From a virus (taxonomy: Duplodnaviria > Caudoviricetes): 24,991 nucleotides of DNA. The notes below the pieces were generated by a model, which searched no databases, had not been told where the DNA came from, and saw nothing but the letters and a program-made list of their open reading frames with translations. The stretch's first letter is position 1, and each line of letters starts with the position of its first letter. This document shows positions 2,513 through 24,991 of this stretch, piece after piece. The position numbers were made by a program, and so were the translations under genes. The stretch covers positions 1 through 24,991 of IMG/VR virus record IMGVR_UViG_3300050153_000007; one strand, given 5' to 3'.

Positions 2513-2736
2513 TGCCAAGAGGAACCAACGTCGACCGGGTTGCAGCCGCCGTTCAGCTGCTGACCAAGGCCCCCCGCACCGTGCAGGAGCTGGGCCGCCT
2601 GCTGGGTATCCCCGCCCCCGCCTGGCTGCGCCATTGGCTGAAGGCCTTCGAGGCTGAAGGCCTGATCGAGCAAGATGGCAAGCGGCGCGAGAACGGCAGC
2701 CGCAAGCCCAGTGTCATATGGAAGTGGGTAGCATGA
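2512..2736 (+). CDS. Small winged helix-turn-helix protein
   Basis: [13 protein letters not shown]...[15 protein letters not shown] followed by a wing-like segment ending IWKWV. ATG at 2512 via TGATG overlap. Confidence 0.75.
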
Positions 2737-3209
2737 TGGCCAAGTGGAAGGACATTCCTGGTGGGCGGTACGAGGTCAGCACCGACGGGCAAGTGCGGCG
2801 CAAAGCCTACCTGCTTAAACCGCACCCAACAAAGAACGGGGGCCACATGCAGCTCATTGTCGGCGGCGCCAACACATACGTGCACCGCCTCGTGGCGGAA
2901 GCCTTTCTCCCCAACCCGCTTGGCAAGAGGACAGTCAACCACATAAACGGCGACCCATCGGATAACCGGCTGTCGAATCTTGAATGGGCTACCCACGGCG
3001 AGAACATCTCCCACGGCTACCAGAGCAACGGCCGCGTTGGGTATAACTGTGTTCGAGTCGCCTCGGTAAACGTGGCGGACGGGGAGACCGTGCAAGCCTT
3101 CGGTAGCATGTCGGCTGCCGCAAAGGCCCATGGGGTCTCAAGAGGCGCAATTCGTGCGGCGGTTGCCGCCTACGGAACCTGCTGCGGGCTGCGGTGGGTG
3201 AGGCTATGA
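2733..3209 (+). CDS. NUMOD4-HNH homing endonuclease with C-terminal NUMOD1/IENR1-like HTH
   Basis: [16 protein letters not shown] (NUMOD4), [13 protein letters not shown]...[22 protein letters not shown] (HNH), [12 protein letters not shown] (NUMOD1-like). Start is 2733 or 2736. Confidence 0.93.
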
Positions 3210-4585
3210 CAAGAAGAGAATACACCCCTAGGCCTTGGCAGCCGCAAATGACAAAACACATCCTGGACGTGGAGCGCTGCGCGTTGTTTTGCCCCATGGG
3301 CTCCGGTAAAACTGGAGCTGCCCTGACCGCAATCGACTCTCTGTTTCTCGCGGGGGAGGACCACCCGGTGCTTGTCGTTGCCCCGTTGCGTGTGGCCAAG
3401 ACTGTGTGGTTGGAAGAGACGCGCAAGTGGAATCACCTGCGGCATGTCTCAGTGATGCCGGTCGTGGGCACCGAGGCTGAACGACGCTCTGCCTTGCGCT
3501 ACGATGCCAGCGTCTTCACCACCAACTTCGAGAACCTCGAATGGCTCGTTGAGCACTTCGGCGAGCGCTGGCCATTTCGCACCATCGTTGCTGACGAGCT
3601 GACCAAGCTGAAGTCCTTCCGGCTCAAGCAAGGCGGCAAGCGGGCCACGGCCCTGGCCAAGGTGGCGCACCCCAAGGTGCAGCGCTTCATCGGCCTGACC
3701 GGTACGCCCTCCCCCAACGGCCTGCAGGACCTGTGGGGGCAGGTGTGGTTCCTTGATGGGGGCGAGCGACTGGGCCGCAGCTTCGAGGCCTTCAAGCAGC
3801 GCTGGTTCCAAAAGCGCCACGACGGCTATGGTCTGGACCCGCTGCCCTTTGCGCAAGAGCAGATCCAGGACAAGCTGCGCGACATCTGCCTGACGGTCGA
3901 CCTGGCCGACTACCTGGACTTGGAAAAGCCAGTGGTCAACAACATCTACGTGGACCTGCCGCCACGGGCCCGTGCGCTGTACCGGGACATGGAGCGCAAG
4001 ATGTTCATGGAGCTGGAGGGCCACGGGGTCGAGGTGTTCAACGCTGCGGCGCGCACGGGCAAGTGTCTGCAGATCGCCAATGGCGCCGCGTACATCGACG
4101 ACAAACAGAACTGGAAAGAGATCCACGACGAGAAGCTGCAGGCCCTGGAGGACATCATCGAAGAGAGCAGCGGCAGCCCGGTGCTGGTGGCGTTCAACTT
4201 CAAGTCGGACCTGGCCCGTTTGCAGAAGGCCTTCCCCAAGGGCAAGACCCTGTCGAACGACAGTCAGATGAAAGACTTCAAAACCGGCAAGTTCGAGGTG
4301 GGCTTTGGGCACCCGGCCAGCATGGGCCATGGCGTTGACGGTTTGCAGGAGCACTGCCACACCATCGTCTTCTTTGGGTTAAATTGGAACCTCGAAGAGC
4401 GGCTGCAGTTCGTCGAACGGGTGGGCCCGGTGCGCCAGATGCAAGCTGGCAAGAAGCGCATCGTCACCATCCACAACATCATCGCCCGTGGGACAGTCGA
4501 TGAGATGGTTCTGGAACGCGTTGACTCTAAGCGCGAGGTGCAGGACATCCTATTGGCAGCCATGAACCGAGGTAGAAGCACATGA
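3206..4585 (+). CDS. SNF2-family (SF2) phage helicase
   Basis: PRPWQ Q-motif, PMGSGKT Walker A, IVADE Walker B, GLTGTP motif [16 protein letters not shown] motif V, ERVGPVRQ motif VI. ATGA overlap at 3206. Confidence 0.95.
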
Positions 4586-5097
4586 TAAAAATACCTGTCG
4601 CCGAACTACGCGCCCGACTAATTCTGGATCTTGCCACTGGGGTTCTGACGTGGCGGGCGACGCACGCACCAGGGTCCTGGGACTCACGCCATGCCGGGAG
4701 GAGGGCGGGCGCCGACAAAGGCAATGGCTACCGGGTGCTTAGAATAGGCGGCGTCAGCTACCAGGAGCATCGAATAGTGTTCGCGCTGGCGTTTGGCTTT
4801 GACCCTGCAGCTTCTCTCGTTGACCACATAAATGGTGTGAGACACGACAACCGGCCATCTAATCTGCAACTGGCTTCTAGTGCGGAGAACGTGAGCAAAC
4901 GCCACCGCAAAAACGCCAACAACACGACGGGCGTGCACGGCGTTAGCGCGCATAAAGCATCGGGGAAGTTCATGGCGCAAATAAAGGTGCGCCGCCGTAA
5001 TTTGTATCTTGGCCTGTTCTGTACCCCAGAGGCCGCTGCAGAGGCTCGGGCGGCGGCGGAGCGAGAGCACTTCAAGGCGTTTGCGCCGAAACTTTGA
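4582..5097 (+). CDS. HNH-AP2 homing endonuclease
   Basis: HRIVF...VDHINGVRHDNRPSNL...EN, then NNTTGVHGV...KFMAQI....LYLGLF.TPEAAAEA (AP2 domain). More A/T-ending codons than the flanking genes. Confidence 0.93.
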   Translation: MIKIPVAELRARLILDLATGVLTWRATHAPGSWDSRHAGRRAGADKGNGYRVLRIGGVSYQEHRIVFALAFGFDPAASLVDHINGVRHDNRPSNLQLASSAENVSKRHRKNANNTTGVHGVSAHKASGKFMAQIKVRRRNLYLGLFCTPEAAAEARAAAEREHFKAFAPKL

Positions 5098-8259: not shown

Positions 8260-11200
8260 TTAGTGCTTGTGCATGTCGCCCGTTGTCAGGCCCCGCCACC
8301 AGTCAGCGATGTCCTGCGGGTCCTGGTGCCCTGTCCAGATGTCGGACAGGAACTGCGAGGTGCTACCAACTTGGCCCAAAGGCATGCCCAGGATGTAACC
8401 CGCCTCGGTCATGGCGTGCTTGATGAAGCGGTCGCCATCGGCCTGGCCGTTCACGTCCTTGAGCAAGCGATCGGTGCTGCCCACGATAGAGGCCACAGGA
8501 CTCATTTCGTAGTCCTTGCCGCCAGCGAAGTGGCCCACCACGTCACGCGCCAGAGGAACGCCGCCGAAGGCCGACAGCGCCATCTGCTTGCCGAACCACT
8601 CCAGCCACCCCTCGGGGTTCTGCTCGTCTTCCTTGGGCGGGTGCATCATGTGGTGAACCGCCTGCACACCCAGCGTGTACATGAAGGTGCGCAGCACCAA
8701 GGTGCCGACATCCCCACGGAATCCCGCCCAGTCGCCACTGGTTTGCGCTTCACCATAAGTGCGGGGCAATTCCTTGACCCGCTTTGCCGTGTCCATGATG
8801 CGGTTGATGTTGTGGTTCCAGAACGTGTAGAACATGGTGAACAACTTCTGGAACTCGTTGCCCCGCTGAATGGCCGCCATGTCCTTGACGCCGCCGCCGC
8901 CGTGGGCGTTGCGCACGGTCTTGTCAGCGAAGTAAACCGCATCGCCCTCGCCCATGCCCAGGCCGCCCTTCTCCGGCGCCTCCATGGCTTTGATGTAGGC
9001 GCCCATCCACGTGGGCAAAGCCGAGGCCATGTCCAGCATGGCAATGCCCTGGTAAGCCCGCGAGGTGATCGACAGCTTGGCCCGCTCCAGCGTGCTGGTG
9101 GCGGGGTCCATCAGTTCCAAGTGGATGGCGCGCAACTGCTCACGCACATCACGCTCGGTCTCGGTAGAGCGGTGGCGCATCTCGGCGCTACGCTCGAAGA
9201 TGAAGTCCCGGTTGGCCTCGAACTGGTCGGAGCGGATGAAGTTGCTTAACCCCTTTTGCAGCCACTCGGGGCCGATGGTTGTCATGGCCGCTGCGGTGCG
9301 CTTGTCGAAGATGCCTTGGCCCATGGTCTTGAAACCGGCCTCGGCCACCGACTCGCCAGCAGCGGTGGTGCCGTGCATCACCATTGTCGACACCCGGAAG
9401 CCCAGGCCCACCATGGTGGTGCGCGTGCGGATCTCGTGGGCGACGCGGTCCCACATCTGCAGCTCGCTGGGCTTGACCATGGCATCGTTGGCCAACGACA
9501 GCAGCCAGCCGTTGAAGGTGTCGTAGTGCTCGACCGACAGCGCGCTGCTGATGGCGCGGCGCACATCGGGGTGGCTCAAGAAGCGGTCGGCTTCGATGAT
9601 GGCCTTGCGCGTGGAGATGTCCCGGATCTCGTCCTTCAAGACACGCGGCAGCACGTCGATCGACAGCAACATCGGCTTGGCGTAGTTGTCGTTTCGAGTC
9701 TGCTCGCGCCCTGTGCTGGTATCCGCGCGGGTGTAGATGTTGTCCTCGAACAGCGAGGCCTCGTGCTTGGCGTTGCGCTCCTTGACCGAATGGCTGCGCG
9801 CAGGGTCGTAGGTGATGGGCCAGTACCAGCCAGGCATGCCGCCATGCGCCGTGTCGAAGGGGATGTGCTCGACGGCTTTGGGGCTGGTGTTGCCCAGATC
9901 GCGCATCATCTGCTGCTTCAAAGGGAACAACTCTTGAAAGGTCTCGGCCAGGCCGCGCACGAAATGCCACTCTCCGGGCGCCATGTTCTTGTCGAGGAAG
10001 TCAAGCACCGCTTCGGGATCCCACTTCTCACCCTTGAGCAGCTTGGCAAAATGCCCTGCGTCGCCACGGATGCCAGCCAGCGCGATCTTTTCGCCCCAGG
10101 TCAAGCGCTGCGTCTTGCCTGTCAAGCCGTCAATCACGCCAGGCATCTCCACCGCACCGCGGTTGTTCTTCAGGATCTCGCGCGGCAGGGCCGCCACGTG
10201 CGCCTCCCACGCCTGCGAGATGCGCAGGTCCAAGTCGTTGCGCACCCCCTCCGCGTCGGCGATCTTGCGGAACACCAGGCGGTTGAAAACGCCGTTGGGC
10301 TTGTAGTCGTCAAGCCAGTCGATCATCTGCTCCATCTTGAGCAGCGAGGCTTGCAAGCTGCGGCCGAAGGCTTTGGTGTTGATCCACTTCTCCTCGATGC
10401 GCGACAACCCGCGGTTGGTGTCGGCCGTGCGCTGTGGCAGCTTCTCCAACTGCGCCACCGCTTCGGCGGCCACGTCGGCCAGCAGGCGGGACTCGTTGCC
10501 GTCGGTGACCTTCTGCACTTCACGGCCCAGGTGGTCGAGGGACTTGACAGCGTCGACCAGACCCCGGAAAGCCTCGACGCTCATGTCTTTGTAGTGCATG
10601 CGTTCGGCGTTGGTCAGCATGCTCTCGGGCACGTCCACGCTGAACTTCATGGCGGCCAGCTTCTCGACGAACGCCTCCAGCGAGGCCATGTTCTTGTCTC
10701 GGGCCTGCTCGGGGCTCAGGCTTGAGCGCAGGTCGTAGCGTGCCAACAGGGCGTCGATCTGGTCACGGAAGGCCACGTCGATCTTCTCGCGCACAGTGGG
10801 CTTGGCCAGCTTCTTGAAATACTCCAGGCCCTTCTTCACGTCGGCGATAGCCTCGGTGGATGACTTGACCAACTGGTTGTTGAGCAGGCTGGAGCGCTGC
10901 GCTTGCACTGCCCCGGCGGGGTCTTTGGCAACGAGCTTGAGCACTGCCTTGTTGGCCTTGGCTTCCGCCGCTTCGTACTGGCGGGGGTTGAGGTCGCGCA
11001 CCTTCTTTGCGGCCACCGCGCCATCGGCCGCTTCGCGTGCGCCGCGCAGCAGTTCACGAGCGTGGATCGGCGACTTGGTCAGCACCTTCAGGCCGGTGGC
11101 GATGAACCGCGCGCGGGCCTCGTTGTGGATAGCGTCGTTGGCAGCACGCTCGATGTCAGCGGGGTTGGACAGCTCGCCATGTTCTTCAAGCATGCGGCGG

Positions 11201-14200
11201 TCTGTCAAGGCGTCGACCAACTCCTTCTTGGGTTCGGACTCCATGATGCTGCGCAGCATCTCTTCGCCGGAGGGGAAGCCATGCACCTCGGCCACCTGGT
11301 CGAAGTCGATGTCGGGCTTGGACAGCACGGGCCGCAGGTTCTCGCGGTCCCACTCGATCATGTGGCGCTCGACGTTGTTGTCGATCTCGCGCTTGGCTTT
11401 GGCCAGTGCCTGGCCTTTTTCCAAGCCGGTCTTGTCGCCCGCTGCGCGCTCCCTCTCGGCAGAACGCACGCGGGCCTCTTCGACACGCCGACTGTCCATC
11501 CAGTCGTCAATCGCCGTGCGGGCCTTCTCCGGTGCGGGGTTGGCTTCGACCCAGTCTGCGCGCTGGTCCTTGGGCTGCTTGTCGCGCTGCTCGCGCCACG
11601 TCGCCATGGCCGCCTTGTATTCGCGGTTGGGTGCAGTGAGGTCATCCAGGTATGCCTTGGCCTGGTAGACAGGCATGGCGTCGACCTGCTCTTGCACTTG
11701 GTCCTGCACATCGCGGCGCGCCGCCTTGGCCTGAGCTTGCGATGCGCGCAGGGCCTTGCTCTTGGCGCCGCTAACCCACTTCATATCCCGCAAAGACTTG
11801 GCCTGCATGTCGTCGACAGCTTGTTCAGTGGCCGTGCGGCCGAGGGTCTGGTAGTCGTCCCACTCTTGGGGCGTCATGCTGTCAGGCTTGTCCTTGAACA
11901 ACGGCTCGAACACACGGGACGATTCGGCTTGCGCGATGGCGTCTTCACTGGCCAGCATGCGGTCGAACACGCCGCGCACCTCGGGGGTGAGGCTGACGTT
12001 CAGGCCCTGCAGCGACTTGTAAATGTCGACCATCCACGAGCGGATGCGACGGAAGAAGGGGACCAGCTCTTGGCTCGGGGCCTTACCCTCCATGAGGTAC
12101 GCCTCGAAGCCACGTGCAAACTGCTCGTGGTGCGGGCGCTGCTCGTCGATGGACATGGCGTTCCACTTGTCCAGGGACTCGACACCAAACCACTTGAGCA
12201 CGTGCTCCATGTCGGCCTTGATCTCGGCCGGTGCGCCTTCGACCGTTGCGATCTTGGCGTAGGTGTCCAGCGCCCAGTGGCCGGTCTCGTGCAAGTAGGT
12301 CGACAGGTTGGCGTCCTTCAGCAGCGCGATGGTCTGGGTGCTTGGGCTGTAGGTGCCGCGTGCTTCTTGGTAGAAGGAGTATTCGTGGGCCAGCACACCG
12401 CCTATGGTGGTGTCTAGCTCCTCGTTCACATCGGCATTGCGCAGTTTCCACAACGCGCTGGCGAAAGTGTCCCGCGCGTATCCATCGTCGGGGGCGATGT
12501 TTATGTTGGCGTCGCCAAAGCTTACCCCTCTGTTCACGTTCGAGTGATCTGAAACTCTCACGTTCAACGACACTTCGCGTTTGTACCCGTCGGGGGTTTC
12601 CCCAAGGGTCTTGAACACTCGAAAGTATTTTGAGCCAACGCCGGATACTTCATACCCCTCTGCTTGCGCCATCGCGGCGAAGGCGTGCGACTTTGCCGAG
12701 ATATCGGCGGACTCGTCGATGTCGCCCCCGCCACCATTCGCCGTGAACTCCGCTTCGACTACACGAGCCAACTCAGGTCCAAGCGCTTGCTCAGGGGCGC
12801 CGCGTGCTGACTGGGCCAGCATGTTGGGGTTGGTGGGGTCGAACTTGCCGAAGTTCTGCACCGACTTGAACTGCTCGGGCTCGAAGGCCACGTAGACCGT
12901 GGCAGGGTCGAAGGGGTTTGTGGCGCCGCCGCCGTCGTCAAGCACCTCGTGGATGACAGCGCCATCACGCCCTTTGGACTTGCGGGCCTCCGAAACCACA
13001 CCAGGTGTGGACTCGAAGTGGTCCTCCGCCGCGTTGACTTCGGAGTCGGGGTGCCGCGCGGCAAGCGCTTCCGCGTCCTCTCGGGTCTCAAAAAAGCCCT
13101 TGCCGTCTTCGGTGTAGAGCCGCTCGCCGTCGGCGCTGTCGACTTGGTACTTGCCTGCGCGCTGGCCGTCCCAGTTCGCACCCTCAAAGTACGATTCAAG
13201 CGGGTTGCGCAGGTTCAAGAAACCGGCATACACATTGCCTCCGCCCCCGCCGACGAGGTCGATCTCTCGCGCACGCCCCTTGCGCACGTAGCTTGCTGCG
13301 GTGGCCCAGTCGGGGGATGTGAAGATGCCTTCGTTTCTCCACCCACCGGAGGGGGCGTTGAACTCCTCAAACCCCGCCTTGTCGGTGCCGTGGTAGACCA
13401 CGAGTGGCTCGCCGTTTTCGTCAACGACCTTCGAGACATCGCTGGCCGCCCAGATGTTCCCCTCACCGGCGGCGTACTTCTCCCAGTCGCCGAACCAGCC
13501 TTTGAACTCGGGAGTGCGCACCATCGCATGGTGCGCGGGGGACAGCTTGCTGGGCTTGCCGTTGGGCGCGAGAGGCTCGCCCTGGCGGAACACCTCGGCC
13601 GCTTCCATCTGGTTGGCCTCGTTCAGGGCCCACCCCTCGCGGCTCAGCTCACCCAGCGCTTCGGAGGTGGCCTTGCCGCTGGCCATCAGCTCGTTGGTCT
13701 TGGCGTCGATTTCGGCCAGCAGGGCATCGCGCTCTTCGCGCGTGGTGGTGCGCATCAGCTCGTCGGCGCGTGCGTTCAGCTTCTCGTTCGATGCCGACTG
13801 CGCGAAGCTGCCCTGCTCGGGCATGTCTCCAGCACGCCCTTCGGTCCAAGTCCACTCAGGCATGAGGCCGGTCTTCTGGTCGGCGAAGACAGTGTCCTCG
13901 ACCTTGGCCGCGCGGTTGGCCTCGCCATGCGGGCCGTAGTTCAGCCAGCTGTTCTGGCCACGGGTCTCGGTGGTGATGGCGCCCAGGGCCGAGCCGGTGA
14001 ACAGACGCGAGTGCGCCTGCCATGCGTTCTCCTCGCCCTCGGCGCGAAAGCCGGCGCCCTCCAGGCCATGGCCGAAGGCGTCGTGCACCGCGCGGAACAG
14101 GTCATTGGCCAGCACAGGCACCAGGGGGCCATCGGGCCCGCCCATGGGCCAGCGCAGGCCCGTGTCTGCCAGCAGCGGGTTGGCCTTGGGGTCGAAGTCC

Positions 14201-17055
14201 TCCTTCGTGCCAAAGCCTTCAGCCGTTGGGAAGACGCCCATCTCCTTGTTGGCGCGGATGTCGCGCATGGCGTTCCAAGGCGTCGAGGCGTACCCGGCGT
14301 TGTCGGCCTTACTCAGGTCGATGAACCAGAACTTGTAACCGGCTTTGTCCAGTGCTTTGTACTGCTCGGTCGTCTGCTTGATCAGGTTCTCGTATGCCTC
14401 CTTGACCACCGGGTCTTGAGGATCATGGGGCATGGCCTCGTAGGCGTCCGCGATGCGCTTGGCGCGGTCAGGGTCTACTCGGACATATCCTGACTGTCGC
14501 TTGAGGGCGATGCCGTTGTCGCTGGCGTACTGCTCTGCGACTCCGACAAGGCTCGGGTCTGGGCCATGAAAGCCTTTGACTGCTGGAGCGCCTTCAAGCG
14601 GCGCAAGTTTCCGGCCAGCTTGCCGTCCGCTTCCGTCTCCGGCTGCTCCGCCTTGGGCTGTGGTGCTCGCTTCTTGGCCATCTGTGGCTCCTTGGGTTGG
14701 TTGCTTCTTGCGGGCCTGCAGTTCACGGCCCTCGATGCGCAGGTCGTAGTCTTCCCATGACGGGCTGGCCTGCATGCGCTCCAGCTTGGCCTGCAGCATG
14801 GCGGGCTCGCCGCTGCTCTGCACGTCCCACTTCACCTCGCCTTGGGGCAGGGCGGGCGGGCGCTCGCCGCCGTCGATGCGCGACTTGGCGCCAAGCAGTT
14901 CGGCCTTGAGCGACTGGGGCCCGAGCATGATGACCTGGCCTTGCGAGGCCCCGCCCATGCGGCTGAGGTATCCCGAGTAGCCAGCGTCCAGCAGCTTGCT
15001 CTCGAAGTCACGGGCGTTGGCCGAGCGTAGCTTCAGGGGGTCGAGGTCGCTGTCGTAGACATTGGAGAGCTTGACACGGTGCCCCCGGCCGCCCACGCCG
15101 CTCTCAGGCAGGATGCCCTTGCCGGTGTCGACGTAGAACGACAGGCGCTTTTGCACGCGCTTGTCGGGGTGGTTCATGATGTCGTCGCGGGCGCTGCCCT
15201 TCAGGCCGGAGCCGAAGTGGTCAGAGCTCAGGGTCTCGCGGTCGGCCTTGCTGAAGTGGTAGCCGTCGACCGTGATGGCGCCGGGGCGGGCCTGGTCAAG
15301 CTCGGCGCCCTTTTGCCCCACGTCGGCCAGCTTGGCCCCGTACTTGGCGAAGGCCTCCTCGGGCGTGACGCCCTCGCGTGCCGCGATGCGCGACAGGATG
15401 GCGCCCTGCACTGTGGCGTTGATGCGGTTGACCTCGGAAGGGAAGCGCCCCAGAGTGTCGAGTTGACCGTGGATCTGGTCGACCACCGCCTCTTGCGAGG
15501 TGCGGAAAGCATCGCGCTCGCCCTTGTCGGACACCATCTTTGCGGCAGCCTCTTTCATCTGCTCGGCCTGCTGCTGCTGGAACTCACGAGCTTCAGCGTA
15601 GGTTTTGCCCCCGGGATCTGTCTTGAGATGCTGCAGCAGCACGTCGCCCAGCGCCGGGTTGATCTTCGTGAAGAAGTCTGCGGTGGGGATCTTCACGTAG
15701 CCGTCGGTGTGCAAGGCCTCCGTCATCTGGCCCGCCACCTCGGGCATCTTGTTGACCAGGTCGGCCGCCTTCACACCGGCCGAGTCGAGAGCGTCGGCGA
15801 AGGTGCGACCATCGACATACACGTGCGACAGGTGACCATCTTCGGTGACGGCCTGCAGGTACTGACGCATGCCCTCCGGGTCGTTGGCCATGAGCTTCGT
15901 GGCATGTGCCACCTGGCCGATGGCCGACAGCGTGCCGAAGTCTCGCTCGGCAGCGTCGGAATGCGCGGTTTCGTTGACCAGGGCGCGGGGAGAGCCAGCA
16001 CCGTGCAGGGAGAAGAAGCCGTTCATCACGGTGTTGAAAAGCACGTCGGCCTTCTCAGCGTCGCTCTTGCCGCCCCAGTCTGCGAACTCAGACAGAGGGA
16101 TCTCGCCGTTGGCTGCGGAGGTGCCCACGGTGTTGGCCGCAAAGCGCCCCAGGAACGAGGCCACGCCTGGCCCGGGGATGGCGTGAGCCACCGCGCCAAA
16201 CACCGCGCCCGTGGCCGTGCCGCTGGCGACGGCCTGGGCCTCCTTCTTGGCGCCGGTGGCGAGGTCGGGGGAGTTGATGGCTTCGCCGACATTGGAGATG
16301 CCTGTGGCCGTGCCGAGGGTCAGGGCGCCCTTGGCGGTGGCGCGCACGCCAGCCTTCAGCGCGGTGTCTGCGGCGGTGCGCTCCAGTGCCTTGATGCCCA
16401 GCCCACCCACCAGCTTCTCGGCGCCCACCACAGGCAGGCCCAGAATGAAGCCGCCTAGGCGCCCGGCAGCGCCCGCGGCCTGGCCCGCGAACGTGTCGGC
16501 GGGGCCTGCCACGTCGGGGACGGCCCCAGCAGTGAACTCGTGGGTGAACTTGCTGATGGCCTGCTGCACGGGGCTGCGGGCCGTGAGCATAGGCATGCCT
16601 TGGGCCAGCGTGTTCTGGGCGATGGCGCGTTGGCGCGCGGTGACGCCGAACACGTTGTTGAGCCAATCGTGGGCGCGCTCGCCCAACGATGGGTTCCAGG
16701 GGGCGGCCACCGCCTGCTCAATGGACGACAGCGCAGGGATGTCCTCGTGCATGGCGTTGGCGTTGTTCTGGTCTGTCAAGAAGCGGGACAGCACAGGCGC
16801 CTTCTGCACCAGGCCGGGAGCGTCAAGCTGCTGAACCTTGACCTGACGCCGCACGTCATCAGGGAAGGCCGCGGCCGACTCGGCGGGAATCTTGAGGAAG
16901 CGGGCCGCGACGTTGGCCTTGGCCGCTGCGTCGGGGTTGACCGTTGCCGCGTTGTGCACACTGTTGGCCACTTGCGGCGCCAGTTGTTGCTCGCGCATTT
17001 TGCGCGATGCTTCCGCCCAGGCGTCCGCGCCGGTGATGTCGTCAGTGCTTGCCAT
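8260..17055 (-). CDS. Giant internal virion / large polyvalent protein, 2931 aa, with ART-like and zincin-like modules
   Basis: Occupies the T7 gp16-equivalent position after two internal virion genes. Contains VVDENGEPLVVYHGT (ART-PolyVal-like), STYLHETGH...EQFARGFE (HExxH zincin), FRAVHDAFGH and a long helical C-terminal core. Confidence 0.9.
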   Translation of the reverse strand: MASTDDITGADAWAEASRKMREQQLAPQVANSVHNAATVNPDAAAKANVAARFLKIPAESAAAFPDDVRRQVKVQQLDAPGLVQKAPVLSRFLTDQNNANAMHEDIPALSSIEQAVAAPWNPSLGERAHDWLNNVFGVTARQRAIAQNTLAQGMPMLTARSPVQQAISKFTHEFTAGAVPDVAGPADTFAGQAAGAAGRLGGFILGLPVVGAEKLVGGLGIKALERTAADTALKAGVRATAKGALTLGTATGISNVGEAINSPDLATGAKKEAQAVASGTATGAVFGAVAHAIPGPGVASFLGRFAANTVGTSAANGEIPLSEFADWGGKSDAEKADVLFNTVMNGFFSLHGAGSPRALVNETAHSDAAERDFGTLSAIGQVAHATKLMANDPEGMRQYLQAVTEDGHLSHVYVDGRTFADALDSAGVKAADLVNKMPEVAGQMTEALHTDGYVKIPTADFFTKINPALGDVLLQHLKTDPGGKTYAEAREFQQQQAEQMKEAAAKMVSDKGERDAFRTSQEAVVDQIHGQLDTLGRFPSEVNRINATVQGAILSRIAAREGVTPEEAFAKYGAKLADVGQKGAELDQARPGAITVDGYHFSKADRETLSSDHFGSGLKGSARDDIMNHPDKRVQKRLSFYVDTGKGILPESGVGGRGHRVKLSNVYDSDLDPLKLRSANARDFESKLLDAGYSGYLSRMGGASQGQVIMLGPQSLKAELLGAKSRIDGGERPPALPQGEVKWDVQSSGEPAMLQAKLERMQASPSWEDYDLRIEGRELQARKKQPTQGATDGQEASTTAQGGAAGDGSGRQAGRKLAPLEGAPAVKGFHGPDPSLVGVAEQYASDNGIALKRQSGYVRVDPDRAKRIADAYEAMPHDPQDPVVKEAYENLIKQTTEQYKALDKAGYKFWFIDLSKADNAGYASTPWNAMRDIRANKEMGVFPTAEGFGTKEDFDPKANPLLADTGLRWPMGGPDGPLVPVLANDLFRAVHDAFGHGLEGAGFRAEGEENAWQAHSRLFTGSALGAITTETRGQNSWLNYGPHGEANRAAKVEDTVFADQKTGLMPEWTWTEGRAGDMPEQGSFAQSASNEKLNARADELMRTTTREERDALLAEIDAKTNELMASGKATSEALGELSREGWALNEANQMEAAEVFRQGEPLAPNGKPSKLSPAHHAMVRTPEFKGWFGDWEKYAAGEGNIWAASDVSKVVDENGEPLVVYHGTDKAGFEEFNAPSGGWRNEGIFTSPDWATAASYVRKGRAREIDLVGGGGGNVYAGFLNLRNPLESYFEGANWDGQRAGKYQVDSADGERLYTEDGKGFFETREDAEALAARHPDSEVNAAEDHFESTPGVVSEARKSKGRDGAVIHEVLDDGGGATNPFDPATVYVAFEPEQFKSVQNFGKFDPTNPNMLAQSARGAPEQALGPELARVVEAEFTANGGGGDIDESADISAKSHAFAAMAQAEGYEVSGVGSKYFRVFKTLGETPDGYKREVSLNVRVSDHSNVNRGVSFGDANINIAPDDGYARDTFASALWKLRNADVNEELDTTIGGVLAHEYSFYQEARGTYSPSTQTIALLKDANLSTYLHETGHWALDTYAKIATVEGAPAEIKADMEHVLKWFGVESLDKWNAMSIDEQRPHHEQFARGFEAYLMEGKAPSQELVPFFRRIRSWMVDIYKSLQGLNVSLTPEVRGVFDRMLASEDAIAQAESSRVFEPLFKDKPDSMTPQEWDDYQTLGRTATEQAVDDMQAKSLRDMKWVSGAKSKALRASQAQAKAARRDVQDQVQEQVDAMPVYQAKAYLDDLTAPNREYKAAMATWREQRDKQPKDQRADWVEANPAPEKARTAIDDWMDSRRVEEARVRSAERERAAGDKTGLEKGQALAKAKREIDNNVERHMIEWDRENLRPVLSKPDIDFDQVAEVHGFPSGEEMLRSIMESEPKKELVDALTDRRMLEEHGELSNPADIERAANDAIHNEARARFIATGLKVLTKSPIHARELLRGAREAADGAVAAKKVRDLNPRQYEAAEAKANKAVLKLVAKDPAGAVQAQRSSLLNNQLVKSSTEAIADVKKGLEYFKKLAKPTVREKIDVAFRDQIDALLARYDLRSSLSPEQARDKNMASLEAFVEKLAAMKFSVDVPESMLTNAERMHYKDMSVEAFRGLVDAVKSLDHLGREVQKVTDGNESRLLADVAAEAVAQLEKLPQRTADTNRGLSRIEEKWINTKAFGRSLQASLLKMEQMIDWLDDYKPNGVFNRLVFRKIADAEGVRNDLDLRISQAWEAHVAALPREILKNNRGAVEMPGVIDGLTGKTQRLTWGEKIALAGIRGDAGHFAKLLKGEKWDPEAVLDFLDKNMAPGEWHFVRGLAETFQELFPLKQQMMRDLGNTSPKAVEHIPFDTAHGGMPGWYWPITYDPARSHSVKERNAKHEASLFEDNIYTRADTSTGREQTRNDNYAKPMLLSIDVLPRVLKDEIRDISTRKAIIEADRFLSHPDVRRAISSALSVEHYDTFNGWLLSLANDAMVKPSELQMWDRVAHEIRTRTTMVGLGFRVSTMVMHGTTAAGESVAEAGFKTMGQGIFDKRTAAAMTTIGPEWLQKGLSNFIRSDQFEANRDFIFERSAEMRHRSTETERDVREQLRAIHLELMDPATSTLERAKLSITSRAYQGIAMLDMASALPTWMGAYIKAMEAPEKGGLGMGEGDAVYFADKTVRNAHGGGGVKDMAAIQRGNEFQKLFTMFYTFWNHNINRIMDTAKRVKELPRTYGEAQTSGDWAGFRGDVGTLVLRTFMYTLGVQAVHHMMHPPKEDEQNPEGWLEWFGKQMALSAFGGVPLARDVVGHFAGGKDYEMSPVASIVGSTDRLLKDVNGQADGDRFIKHAMTEAGYILGMPLGQVGSTSQFLSDIWTGHQDPQDIADWWRGLTTGDMHKH
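14475..14681 (-). CDS. Candidate overprinted gene (68 aa, MAKKRAPQPKAEQ...) nested in the +1 frame of the giant protein
   Basis: AAGGAG SD 6 nt before the ATG at 14681. Over its first 49 codons GC3 is 41/49 in this frame but only 23/49 in the host frame (hand count). Confidence 0.55.
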   Translation of the reverse strand: MAKKRAPQPKAEQPETEADGKLAGNLRRLKALQQSKAFMAQTRALSESQSSTPATTASPSSDSQDMSE

Positions 17056-18871
17056 GCAGGCTCCAGTATTGGGTCAGGATGTCGCGGTCGGTCGGGGCCG
17101 AGTTGCCGCTGCGGATCAGGTCTTGCTTGAGGCCATCATAAGCCCCAGCAGGCAGGTCCTTGACGGTCATGCCCATCATGCGCTGGGATGTGCTGCCGCC
17201 TTTGTACAAACCGCCCAGGTATTCGGTGCGGAAGCCGATGTTCGTGGCAAAGAGCTTGTCCAGCGCCTGCTGGGTTTCCTGCTGGTTGAAGCGTTTCCCC
17301 GCAGCCTGCTGCTCAGAGATGACGTATTGGGAGGCGTACTGCTGGATGGCGCCGATGCGCTCCTTGTCCTCGGTCGACTTGGCTTTGGTTGGGTTCACCC
17401 CGATCGAGATCATGCGGCTGTTTAACGCAGCGTTGAAGCCTTGCACGTGCAGGTTGCCGGGGTCTTTACCGGGGGCGACGATGCCCTGCTTCAAGTCGGT
17501 GCGCTGTTGGTCCCAGTCCAACCAGTCCTTGCGGGACATGCTGCCCTTCATGTTGATCCAGTCGGTGTCAGACAGCTTGCCGATGTCGAGGTCACTGCCG
17601 TCACCGAAGTGGGTGTACAGGTTGTGCGAGATGACAGGGTCGGTCGGCTTGTTGCTCTCGCGGCTGGCGAAAGAGTCGATGGCCGCCAGGTGCCCCTTGG
17701 CTTGGAGCGCCACGTAAATGTTGCGGGGCAGGTCAGTCACTGAGGCGCCGGGGTTGCGGATCAGGAAGTCCTGGGCCTGGCCCACGACGCTGGCCATGCC
17801 CTTGTCGGCGTTGGACTCTTGCTGTGACTGCAGCCGATCGAGCGCCACCATGGCGTGCTCGTAGATGGCCCCGTTGACCCTGACGCCGCCGATCTCGCCC
17901 TTGCTGTCGAAGGCATCGCCCAAGGCTTTGCGCTTGGCCGCAATGCCGCCGGGGGCGTTCTCCAGCGCGCGCTTGACCGTGACGATGTTGTCCTGCTGCG
18001 AGCTTGCATCAAGCACCGGCTTGATGTGGTCTACCTGCTCGGGCGAGAGTTGGTCCTGGATCTTGGCGAAATACTGTTGGGCCATGGCCAACGAGCCCGG
18101 GTCGGCGGCCTTGCCCTTCTTGCCACCCAGCAGGTAGAACAGCGTGCCAACGTAAGCCTGGCTCAGTGCTTGCTTGACGTTGGCGTCGACCACGTCTTTG
18201 TCAATCACGCCGGCGTTAGCCAGCAGCGTCTTGGTCTCCGACGCCACGGTCTGCAGGTACTGCTGGTACTGGCTGTTTGACTCGGGCTTGTCTTGATCGA
18301 AGTTTAGAGTCGGCGTGTCGGTCATCGGGTTGAAAGCGGGTGCCGCGCCATCCGATGCCACCTTCGCGCGAGTCTGCCCTGCCGACTGCAGGTAGATGTA
18401 GGCCTGTTGGTCCCTGTGCTGAATCGCCGCTTGGATGGCCGACTGCACGCGCATCTGCGCGGTCGTCTTGACCATCTCCTGCTGCGCGGTTGACATCCCT
18501 TCACTGTGCGTTGCCGCCAGGCTTTGGAGCTTCTGCACCGTCTTGTCGAGGGTGTCCCCGACAGCGTTGCCGCCTTTCTTGTTCACGTACCCCGAAGCCG
18601 GGTCGTCGGGCGTGCCGTACAACACGCCCTGGATCGAGCCCATCAGCCCGGCGTCGAACTCTTTGGCCTTGGCCTCGTTCTGGTGGATCTGGTCCTGAGT
18701 GGCCATCTCCAGCCCTTTGACCCCGGCGGCGGTCAAAGCCTGCCCGGTCTTCATCTGCTCCTGTGGGCCGATCTGTGCGGCCTGCATCAGGCGGAAGGGC
18801 GTGCTCTGGCGGGCGTCGGGGACGTTCTGCGGCGCGACTGTGGGGGCGCTGTAGACTGGCACGTTTGGCAT
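17042..18871 (-). CDS. Internal virion protein (gp15-equivalent position), 609 aa
   Basis: MPNVPVY N-terminus, helical Ala/Gln-rich sequence, lies between the gp14-like and giant genes; 14-nt overlap with the giant gene. Confidence 0.75.
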   Translation of the reverse strand: MPNVPVYSAPTVAPQNVPDARQSTPFRLMQAAQIGPQEQMKTGQALTAAGVKGLEMATQDQIHQNEAKAKEFDAGLMGSIQGVLYGTPDDPASGYVNKKGGNAVGDTLDKTVQKLQSLAATHSEGMSTAQQEMVKTTAQMRVQSAIQAAIQHRDQQAYIYLQSAGQTRAKVASDGAAPAFNPMTDTPTLNFDQDKPESNSQYQQYLQTVASETKTLLANAGVIDKDVVDANVKQALSQAYVGTLFYLLGGKKGKAADPGSLAMAQQYFAKIQDQLSPEQVDHIKPVLDASSQQDNIVTVKRALENAPGGIAAKRKALGDAFDSKGEIGGVRVNGAIYEHAMVALDRLQSQQESNADKGMASVVGQAQDFLIRNPGASVTDLPRNIYVALQAKGHLAAIDSFASRESNKPTDPVISHNLYTHFGDGSDLDIGKLSDTDWINMKGSMSRKDWLDWDQQRTDLKQGIVAPGKDPGNLHVQGFNAALNSRMISIGVNPTKAKSTEDKERIGAIQQYASQYVISEQQAAGKRFNQQETQQALDKLFATNIGFRTEYLGGLYKGGSTSQRMMGMTVKDLPAGAYDGLKQDLIRSGNSAPTDRDILTQYWSLHGKH

Positions 18872-24476: not shown

Positions 24477-24989
24477 TTAAGCGGGTTGGTTCGGGTAGAG
24501 GGACTTGGCGTGGGTGGTCTCGCCCTTGGTGGGCTGGCGACCGCCAGGCACAAACTTGTCCTCGCTGATGGCTTTGCCGGCATTGAAGAACGCCCGGATG
24601 ATCTCGGGGTGGTTGCCCAGCCCGGTGCCTTTGGGGTTGTTCTGCATGTCGAACTTGCCGAGCAACGCGCGCAACTCCGGCGTGCCGAAGGCCGCAAGGG
24701 CCTTCTCGGCAACCGCAAGATTCTCTTGCAGCTTGTCGCCGCCCAGGGTCTTGTCCGCTTTGGTGTCAGTGACCCATTGCGAGACGGCCGTGTTGTAGGC
24801 TTCCAGCTGGCGGGCTTGGAAGCGCTCGGCGACCTTGGGCGCGATAGCGTCAAGGATCTTCTGCGCAGCACCTTGGGACAGGTCCAGATCCTTGACGACT
24901 TCAGAGAACGTCCCGATCACCTCGTCATCGAACTTGCCGCCCTCGGGCGGTTTGAACTCGTAGGTCTCAGGAGCGCCGAGAACGCTCTC
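24477..24989 (-). CDS. Capsid assembly scaffold protein (5' truncated by window)
   Basis: Frame is open to the window edge (ESVLGAPETYEFKPPEG). GLGNHPEIIRAF...GKAISED and terminal LYPN motifs; directly upstream of the capsid gene. Confidence 0.85.
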   Translation of the reverse strand, partial: ESVLGAPETYEFKPPEGGKFDDEVIGTFSEVVKDLDLSQGAAQKILDAIAPKVAERFQARQLEAYNTAVSQWVTDTKADKTLGGDKLQENLAVAEKALAAFGTPELRALLGKFDMQNNPKGTGLGNHPEIIRAFFNAGKAISEDKFVPGGRQPTKGETTHAKSLYPNQPA

Positions 24990-24991
24990 GA

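Follow-up and report, generated by a model that had tools for sequence, protein, structure and literature searches.

What is the role of a short word, phenylalanine or leucine followed by any residue and glutamine, that recurs between the modules of a giant podoviral protein? The window analysed here is a stretch of 24,991 bases that comprises an entire viral contig, with the gene content of a BPP-1-like podovirus (capsid, tail and internal virion genes; Pfam, PHROG). It encodes a Bbp10-type polyvalent ejection protein of 2931 amino acids on the minus strand (8260..17055; the same strand applies to all features of this protein given below). A preliminary description had read five [FL]xQ junctions in this protein as cleavage sites, possibly for a neighbouring HExxH zincin, and/or as recombination joints of a swappable payload.

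The protein is an orthologue of BPP-1 Bbp10, based on sequence (43% across the zincin plus the C-terminal part) and on gene order. It occupies the IVP-D position, after the tail nozzle and internal virion genes and before the tail fibre, and its flanks carry further virion genes (capsid, tail tube). Table 2 of Hardies (2016; PMC4819975) gives Bbp10 as an IVP-D ejection protein homologue, and together with synteny this indicates that the protein is likely packaged and ejected with the DNA. For the adjacent gene at the IVP-C position (17042-18871, 609 aa), neither Pfam nor PHROG gives a match, whereas BPP-1 Bbp11 and several relatives have a lysozyme or transglycosylase there. Elsewhere in the window, two HNH endonuclease genes (2718-3209 and 4582-5097) are found on either side of a SNF2-type helicase. 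BPP-1 Bbp10 itself and orthologues in L002, L004, L006 and L013 bear the annotation of crystallin-motif protein or lysin; for the window protein there is no crystallin or lysin match in Pfam. Its single chain, encoded among virion genes, combines an LPD22 domain (aa 32-117, 16705..16962; Pfam PF18834, E 1.7e-08, above cut-off), an ART-PolyVal domain also above the Pfam cut-off and an HExxH..E zincin motif. In this respect it resembles the large polyvalent proteins of virion gene modules described in Iyer et al. (2017; PMC5512222), as do its relatives with their additional PBECR, LPD3, LPD23, RadC and GNAT modules.

The five junctions of the preliminary description, as well as the words YHFS, HDAFGH, YHGT, RVSDH and HETGH, are all confirmed in place. 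Junction 1 (L-D-Q, aa 586-588, 15292..15300) is a left tag borne by the scaffold. It is followed by module A (YHFS, aa 589-785, 14701..15291), which consists of a core to residue 735 and a short extension. Its ART-like character is limited to a residue pattern (H, Y, GY): it has no Pfam, NCBIfam or PDB match, and an hhalign comparison with module D, made without secondary structure, is not significant (probability 0.2%). Module A has 72 relatives among the fetched proteins and a mobile position in the module order. The word LPQ at aa 736-738 was considered as a sixth junction and rejected, as the close relatives L028 and P0145 read LPA. Between modules A and B lies a linker (14653..14700) in which both tags are degenerate (PTQ, aa 786-788; TAQ, aa 799-801), at a position where relatives carry LEQ, FNQ or YSQ. 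YHFS and HDxxGH had been listed together between one pair of junctions; they are two separately mobile modules that lack a canonical tag between them here.

Module B (H-D/E-x-x-G-H ... GEENAW..H, aa 802-1083, 13807..14652; PHROG 3170) has five residues that are invariant in 42 of 42 sequences (H991, H996, E1008, E1009 and H1015); the word is HDxxGH in 41 of them and has HE in one. This pattern makes it a likely metal-binding enzyme. Its AF2 model (pLDDT 87.8) has no Foldseek match at E<=0.001, its profile does not match the scaffold zincin, a PDB sequence search gave nothing significant, and in the ESM Atlas it falls in unnamed viral clusters only (0.91-0.95). Junction 2 (F-A-Q, aa 1084-1086, 13798..13806) and junction 3 (F-R-Q, aa 1156-1158, 13582..13590) enclose module C, a helical-looking stretch of 69 residues (13591..13797) between B and D with no relative among the fetched proteins. 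In P0151, P0160, P0140 and P0164 modules B and D are directly joined by one tag, and judging from this comparison module C is a gain specific to the window protein within that sample. Module D (YHGT, aa 1159-1412, 12820..13581) is an ADP-ribosyltransferase of the ART-PolyVal family, with Pfam PF18760 at aa 1212-1401 (E 2.2e-19; 71 bits, cut-off 31.2), a His in strand 1 and a Tyr in strand 2. Junction 4 (L-A-Q, aa 1413-1415, 12811..12819) precedes module E (RVSDHxNVNRG, aa 1416-1560, 12376..12810), which has 17 relatives in three scaffold types; it has no Pfam, NCBIfam or ESM Atlas assignment, and a single-sequence scan found no locus. Its ESM Atlas leads, metalloproteases included, are weak (<0.9) and were not trusted. 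Junction 5 (F-Y-Q, aa 1561-1563, 12367..12375) is located two residues ahead of the RG strand of the zincin. As to the suggested early anti-host or anti-defence enzymes, module D alone has a family match, host protein modification by ART-PolyVal domains being a postulate of Iyer et al. (2017); A, B, C and E have no assigned function, and an anti-defence function of the cargo is a guess.

Within the window protein the motif hardly stands out, which is what a chance pattern in a mosaic protein would give: [FL]xQ occurs 14 times against 13.6 expected in the whole chain, without enrichment, and six times against 3.8 expected in the cassette region. The family data refute this explanation, to which practically no weight can be given. 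A search with the zincin region returned at least 3447 protein clusters, of which we fetched 120 members and added 19 loci (139 in total). Edges were counted in 131 proteins including that of the window (115 with cargo, 16 empty), anchored on the conserved flanks of the variable region. Eight entries were left out: P0069, P0099, L012, L014 and L017 for want of a left anchor, P0111 for a poor anchor, L001 as a duplicate and P0026 for a tandem repeat. In the latter, aa 560-1600 form a near-exact repeat of N-half, module and zincin with three HExxH copies, either a duplication or an assembly artefact. Among the 115 filled proteins, [FL]xQ lies within 22 residues of the left scaffold anchor in 94 (background 10.9% of cassette-interior windows) and within 12 residues of the zincin RG in 97 (background 5.6%), the mis-picked RG anchors of L007, L015 and L016 being scored as misses. 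With Y and M also allowed, both edges reach 105 of 115. Thirteen of the 16 empty alleles carry [FL]xQ as well. Internal boundaries were projected by homology with the motif masked before BLAST, and 60 of 96 fall within 12 residues of [FLYM]xQ against a background of 18.6%, although the proteins are related to each other and a binomial p is no true probability here. Hence the motif is indeed commoner at module boundaries than elsewhere, as had been anticipated, and the post-Q breaks and scaffold-dependent tags described below point in the same direction.

Further regularities accompany the tag. The residue following Q is S, A, G or P at 103 of 190 boundaries. The spacer between Q and RG is two residues in 71 of 117 cases and five in 28, which suggests a fixed geometry at the strand preceding the active-site helix. 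Module order varies among relatives, and insert length ranges from 12 to 2045 residues (199 proteins and loci); the Vibrio phages MZH0603 and 1.185.O form an empty/filled pair. A second length-variable region is present downstream of the zincin (10700-11650, aa about 1800-1920), ending near an FDQ at aa 1918-1920, where homology to many relatives picks up again. The tag is not universal. By crude tag patterns, which score L166 and L167 as S despite a Q tag before RG, the left Q is missing in 8 of 12 proteins that start with module A versus 14 of 135 others, and by the same patterns module B has neither tag in 44 of 77 loci of mixed scaffolds, Q being present in all six with a window-type zincin in view. 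Two inserts at a second site and some nested inserts are untagged. P0064, P0093, P0145, P0161 and P0120 have untagged modules within module B, at recurring positions. Since the tag is short and conservation of Phi-x-Q (hydrophobic-x-Q) extends to several scaffold columns that bear no insertion, accessibility must matter.

The point of exchange is sharply defined. In 73 pairs from 71 proteins with a like left scaffold and an unlike first module, identity amounts to 0.48-0.85 over the 12 residues before Q and 0.01-0.10 over the 12 residues from Q+1; the pairs were selected by more distant positions and aligned at Q, and some proteins and loci are identical in sequence. This collapse right after Q makes the module with its C-terminal tag the unit of exchange. 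In combination with the tags at the edges and at internal boundaries in the aligned relatives, it upholds the idea of a swappable payload whose gains and losses map to hydrophobic-x-Q sites. Breakpoints exactly past the Q codon, and filled alleles that resemble empty ones with the motif duplicated (L009 versus L010), would also suit a translated DNA recombination site or insertion scar without protein function. Yet across 112 junctions conservation is confined to the bases that coding forces: codons for Leu, Phe, Tyr and Met all occur, and Gln is encoded by either of its codons at a ratio near the gene background (CAG:CAA 74:38 versus 5843:2227). No repeat family links the five junctions of the window, no conserved DNA site of the kind found in integron- or shufflon-like cassettes is seen at the junctions, and scars would decay. 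The synonymous and Leu/Phe variation already largely refutes a site or scar, which we consider very improbable, and the proposed recombination joint fails as a DNA signal, even though breaks do fall just past the Q codon. Microhomology at the tag codons may help swaps.

The surroundings of the cassette offer a more specific clue. HETGH had been placed after the cassette, and it is found there, but the zincin does not merely follow the cargo, since it is predicted to enclose it. A two-chain model assigns to its N-terminal half a helix (aa 545-557) and a strand (aa 574-578) upstream of junction 1 (15316..15438), and its C-terminal half (11956..12360) contains the RG strand, strand 3, HETGH (aa 1589-1593, nt 12277-12291) and a predicted third ligand, E1644. 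The motif and E1644 agree with the HExxH helix and downstream Glu of zincin-like MPTases, and H, E, H and the downstream E are invariant in 29 of 29 and 13 of 13 alignment rows. The two-half model scores 0.90, compared to 0.14 for the best of three controls; at least 86% of contacts are shared between its runs and partner pLDDT is at least 85. In a benchmark that is roughly applicable here, 116 of 157 solved pairs attained this level, as did 2 of 215 mismatched ones. In the model, K575-L576 touch T1575-I1576, the N-half helix packs against the HExxH helix, and the interface includes aa 583-587 and the catalytic E1590. An empty allele is predicted by AF2 as one domain (pLDDT 89) with the elements H44-65, E78-82, E97-100, E110-114, H120-138 and H170-190, and its tag lies in the loop between strands 78-82 and 97-100. 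This is the MPTase topology of an N-terminal helix, a three-stranded sheet and two C-terminal helices, and the window halves dock accordingly. The prediction thereby places the cassette within the zincin fold, with strand 1 on one side and the RG strand on the other.

All 120 fetched family members have HExxH, with no zincin-dead allele among them, the search query itself being the HExxH region. A PDB sequence search with the zincin gave nothing significant, and single-sequence scans found one viral locus and no genome locus. In two relatives a second cargo site is present between the HExxH helix and the Glu helix, with module E tagged on both sides (P0122, aa 1647-1790; P0123, aa 1110-1250). 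P0044 and L012 have untagged inserts at this site.

Tags also follow the zincin type. Among the 95 of 120 ART-module matches that could be anchored, Phi-x-Q closes the module in 23 of the 24 proteins that have the window-type zincin but in 1 of the 71 others, 54 of which show R-x-S in the same register. Relatives of module E behave similarly: all six with the window-type zincin end in [FY]xQ (FYQ, FAQ or YFQ), compared to none of 11 others, of which seven end in [RKM]-F-S-[RVK], a word that occurs three to six times in each such protein, three in DYFF and one without a tag. The module trees force at least three tag switches for the ART module and at least two for module E (Q label); for the ART module three independent pairs are concordant, too few for significance (p 0.25). 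At the sequence level, these comparisons show that tag identity goes with the scaffold, since a given module is tagged differently when it sits in a different scaffold. In polyvalent proteins that contain InPase or LPD38 domains (P0170-P0254, P0124-P0137), the word between modules is I-R-x-S or R-F-S-R; P0177 and P0190 have I-T-F-S/A, and almost all of the ten ART ends in P0193 read I-R-F-S. An HExxxH zincin is present in several of the LPD38 proteins. P0180 has Phi-x-Q at four ART ends despite a scaffold without the window-type zincin profile.

We therefore favour, with a probability of roughly 60%, a mechanism in which the zincin cuts at the Phi-x-Q tag and releases the modules while its own halves keep the scaffold together. 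Swappable modules ending in Phi-x-Q would interrupt the predicted zincin of a likely ejected podovirus core protein, and as the helix and strand before the cassette are predicted to complete the zincin fold, removal of the cargo would leave the N-part and C-part joined via the zincin sheet. Modules start at Q+1, a position with a preference for small residues, so the cut would most likely fall after Q, with pieces of about 61 (N-part), 54 (A+B), 8, 28, 16 and 154 (C-part) kDa. Many metalloproteases read P1', so a cut before Q is possible too. Cutting might take place in the head or on ejection, and would set free, as infection begins, one ADP-ribosyltransferase along with three uncharacterised proteins. 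We infer that the empty one-tag allele may represent an ancestral self-processing loop, at which cargo accumulated as module+tag units.

The same interface could also be read differently, with the tag as a non-cleaved docking or latency element that binds the zincin cleft or a packaging or ejection partner, in a protein that works at full length and whose zincin attacks a host target. The fixed spacing between tag and RG strand, the predicted interface at aa 583-587 and the tolerated loss of the tag beside module A would fit, and passages of Iyer et al. (2017) describe several MPTase proteins, together with N4 vRNAP, ArdC and TraC1, as delivered whole. However, a single cleft has no room for up to six tags simultaneously, internal tags are retained even at a great distance from the zincin and become re-specified when the module changes scaffold, and modules start straight after Q; in P0080 and P0115, for example, position 1-2 of the Pfam LPD23 profile adjoins the tag. 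We regard docking as unlikely.

Still less probable is that another protease cuts the tags, be it a phage enzyme of head maturation, one of the host or module B itself. As described in PMC10052503, prohead proteases of T4-like and jumbo phages recognise P3-x-P1 words in head and ejection proteins (A-X-E for SPN3US gp245), and they share with the cutting proposed here a short word, a small P1' residue and ejection proteins in the head as substrates. They are, however, separate enzymes that act in trans, mainly in propeptide removal, with Glu at P1, instead of Gln, a predicted in-chain metalloprotease and proposed release of internal modules. A candidate is nevertheless at hand: the gene from 24477 onward is labelled 'protease' in PHROG 458 and in BPP-1 Bbp18 (RefSeq), although neither Bbp18 nor the window copy has a protease match in Pfam or PDB, which is absence only. 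The window copy (24477-24991) has the look of a scaffolding protein. The invariant HD/ExxGH..EE set of module B would suit a protease as well, but the module is missing from most tagged family members. For a host protease, there is no obvious account of a scaffold-dependent tag or of a cassette inside a zincin.

Polyvalent proteins and MPTase autoproteolysis within them are known proposals (Iyer, Burroughs, Anand, de Souza and Aravind, 2017). The main-text passages of that paper covered here mention no cleavage motif, cassette within an MPTase fold or scaffold-specific tags, and its supplements might list such motifs. Neither did we find a report of Phi-x-Q tags, a split zincin or tag switching in the literature searched, mostly outside subscription papers, nor processing data for Bbp10 or epsilon15-group IVP-D ejection proteins; in the parts of the phi24B and A1002 papers covered there are no data on tag cleavage of such proteins. 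As told in Iyer et al. (2017), P1 DdrB is an MPTase-bearing virion protein that is processed before packaging, but it is set apart by description, with a C-terminal MPTase, one known product and no tag or cassette described. BPP-1 Bbp10 has one module between FDQ and FYQ, in contrast to five modules in the window protein. More distant, and with no homology implied, is the likeness to the viral 3C-like proteases. These cysteine proteases of RNA viruses process polyproteins at Q followed by small residues, and the scheme proposed here equally involves one chain, its own protease and Gln before a small residue.

More tentatively, as a possibility that falls somewhat short of even odds, self-processing magazines may exist in the ejection proteins of many podoviruses, each lineage having its own zincin and tag (Phi-x-Q, or R-x-S or R-F-S in InPase/LPD38 scaffolds) and modules being re-tagged on a change of lineage. 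In the case described here, the zincin would be a split clamp that excises looped cargo and leaves the DNA-ejection scaffold in one piece. The tags would give the 2017 autoproteolysis proposal exact predicted cut sites across a family that comprises 3447 protein clusters or more. Some members are from phages in culture (BPP-1, Caulobacter Jess A, Carin-1 and Vibrio 1.185.O), and the family offers one catalytic residue to mutate, in addition to natural empty and filled alleles. As a rule to parse polyvalent proteins into likely mature products, the tag delimits A, B, C and E, presumably early-acting modules of uncharacterised function, as candidate units for assays against bacterial defence. 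It also suggests how cargo of 0 to 2000 residues can be accommodated in a protein that has to build the ejection channel.
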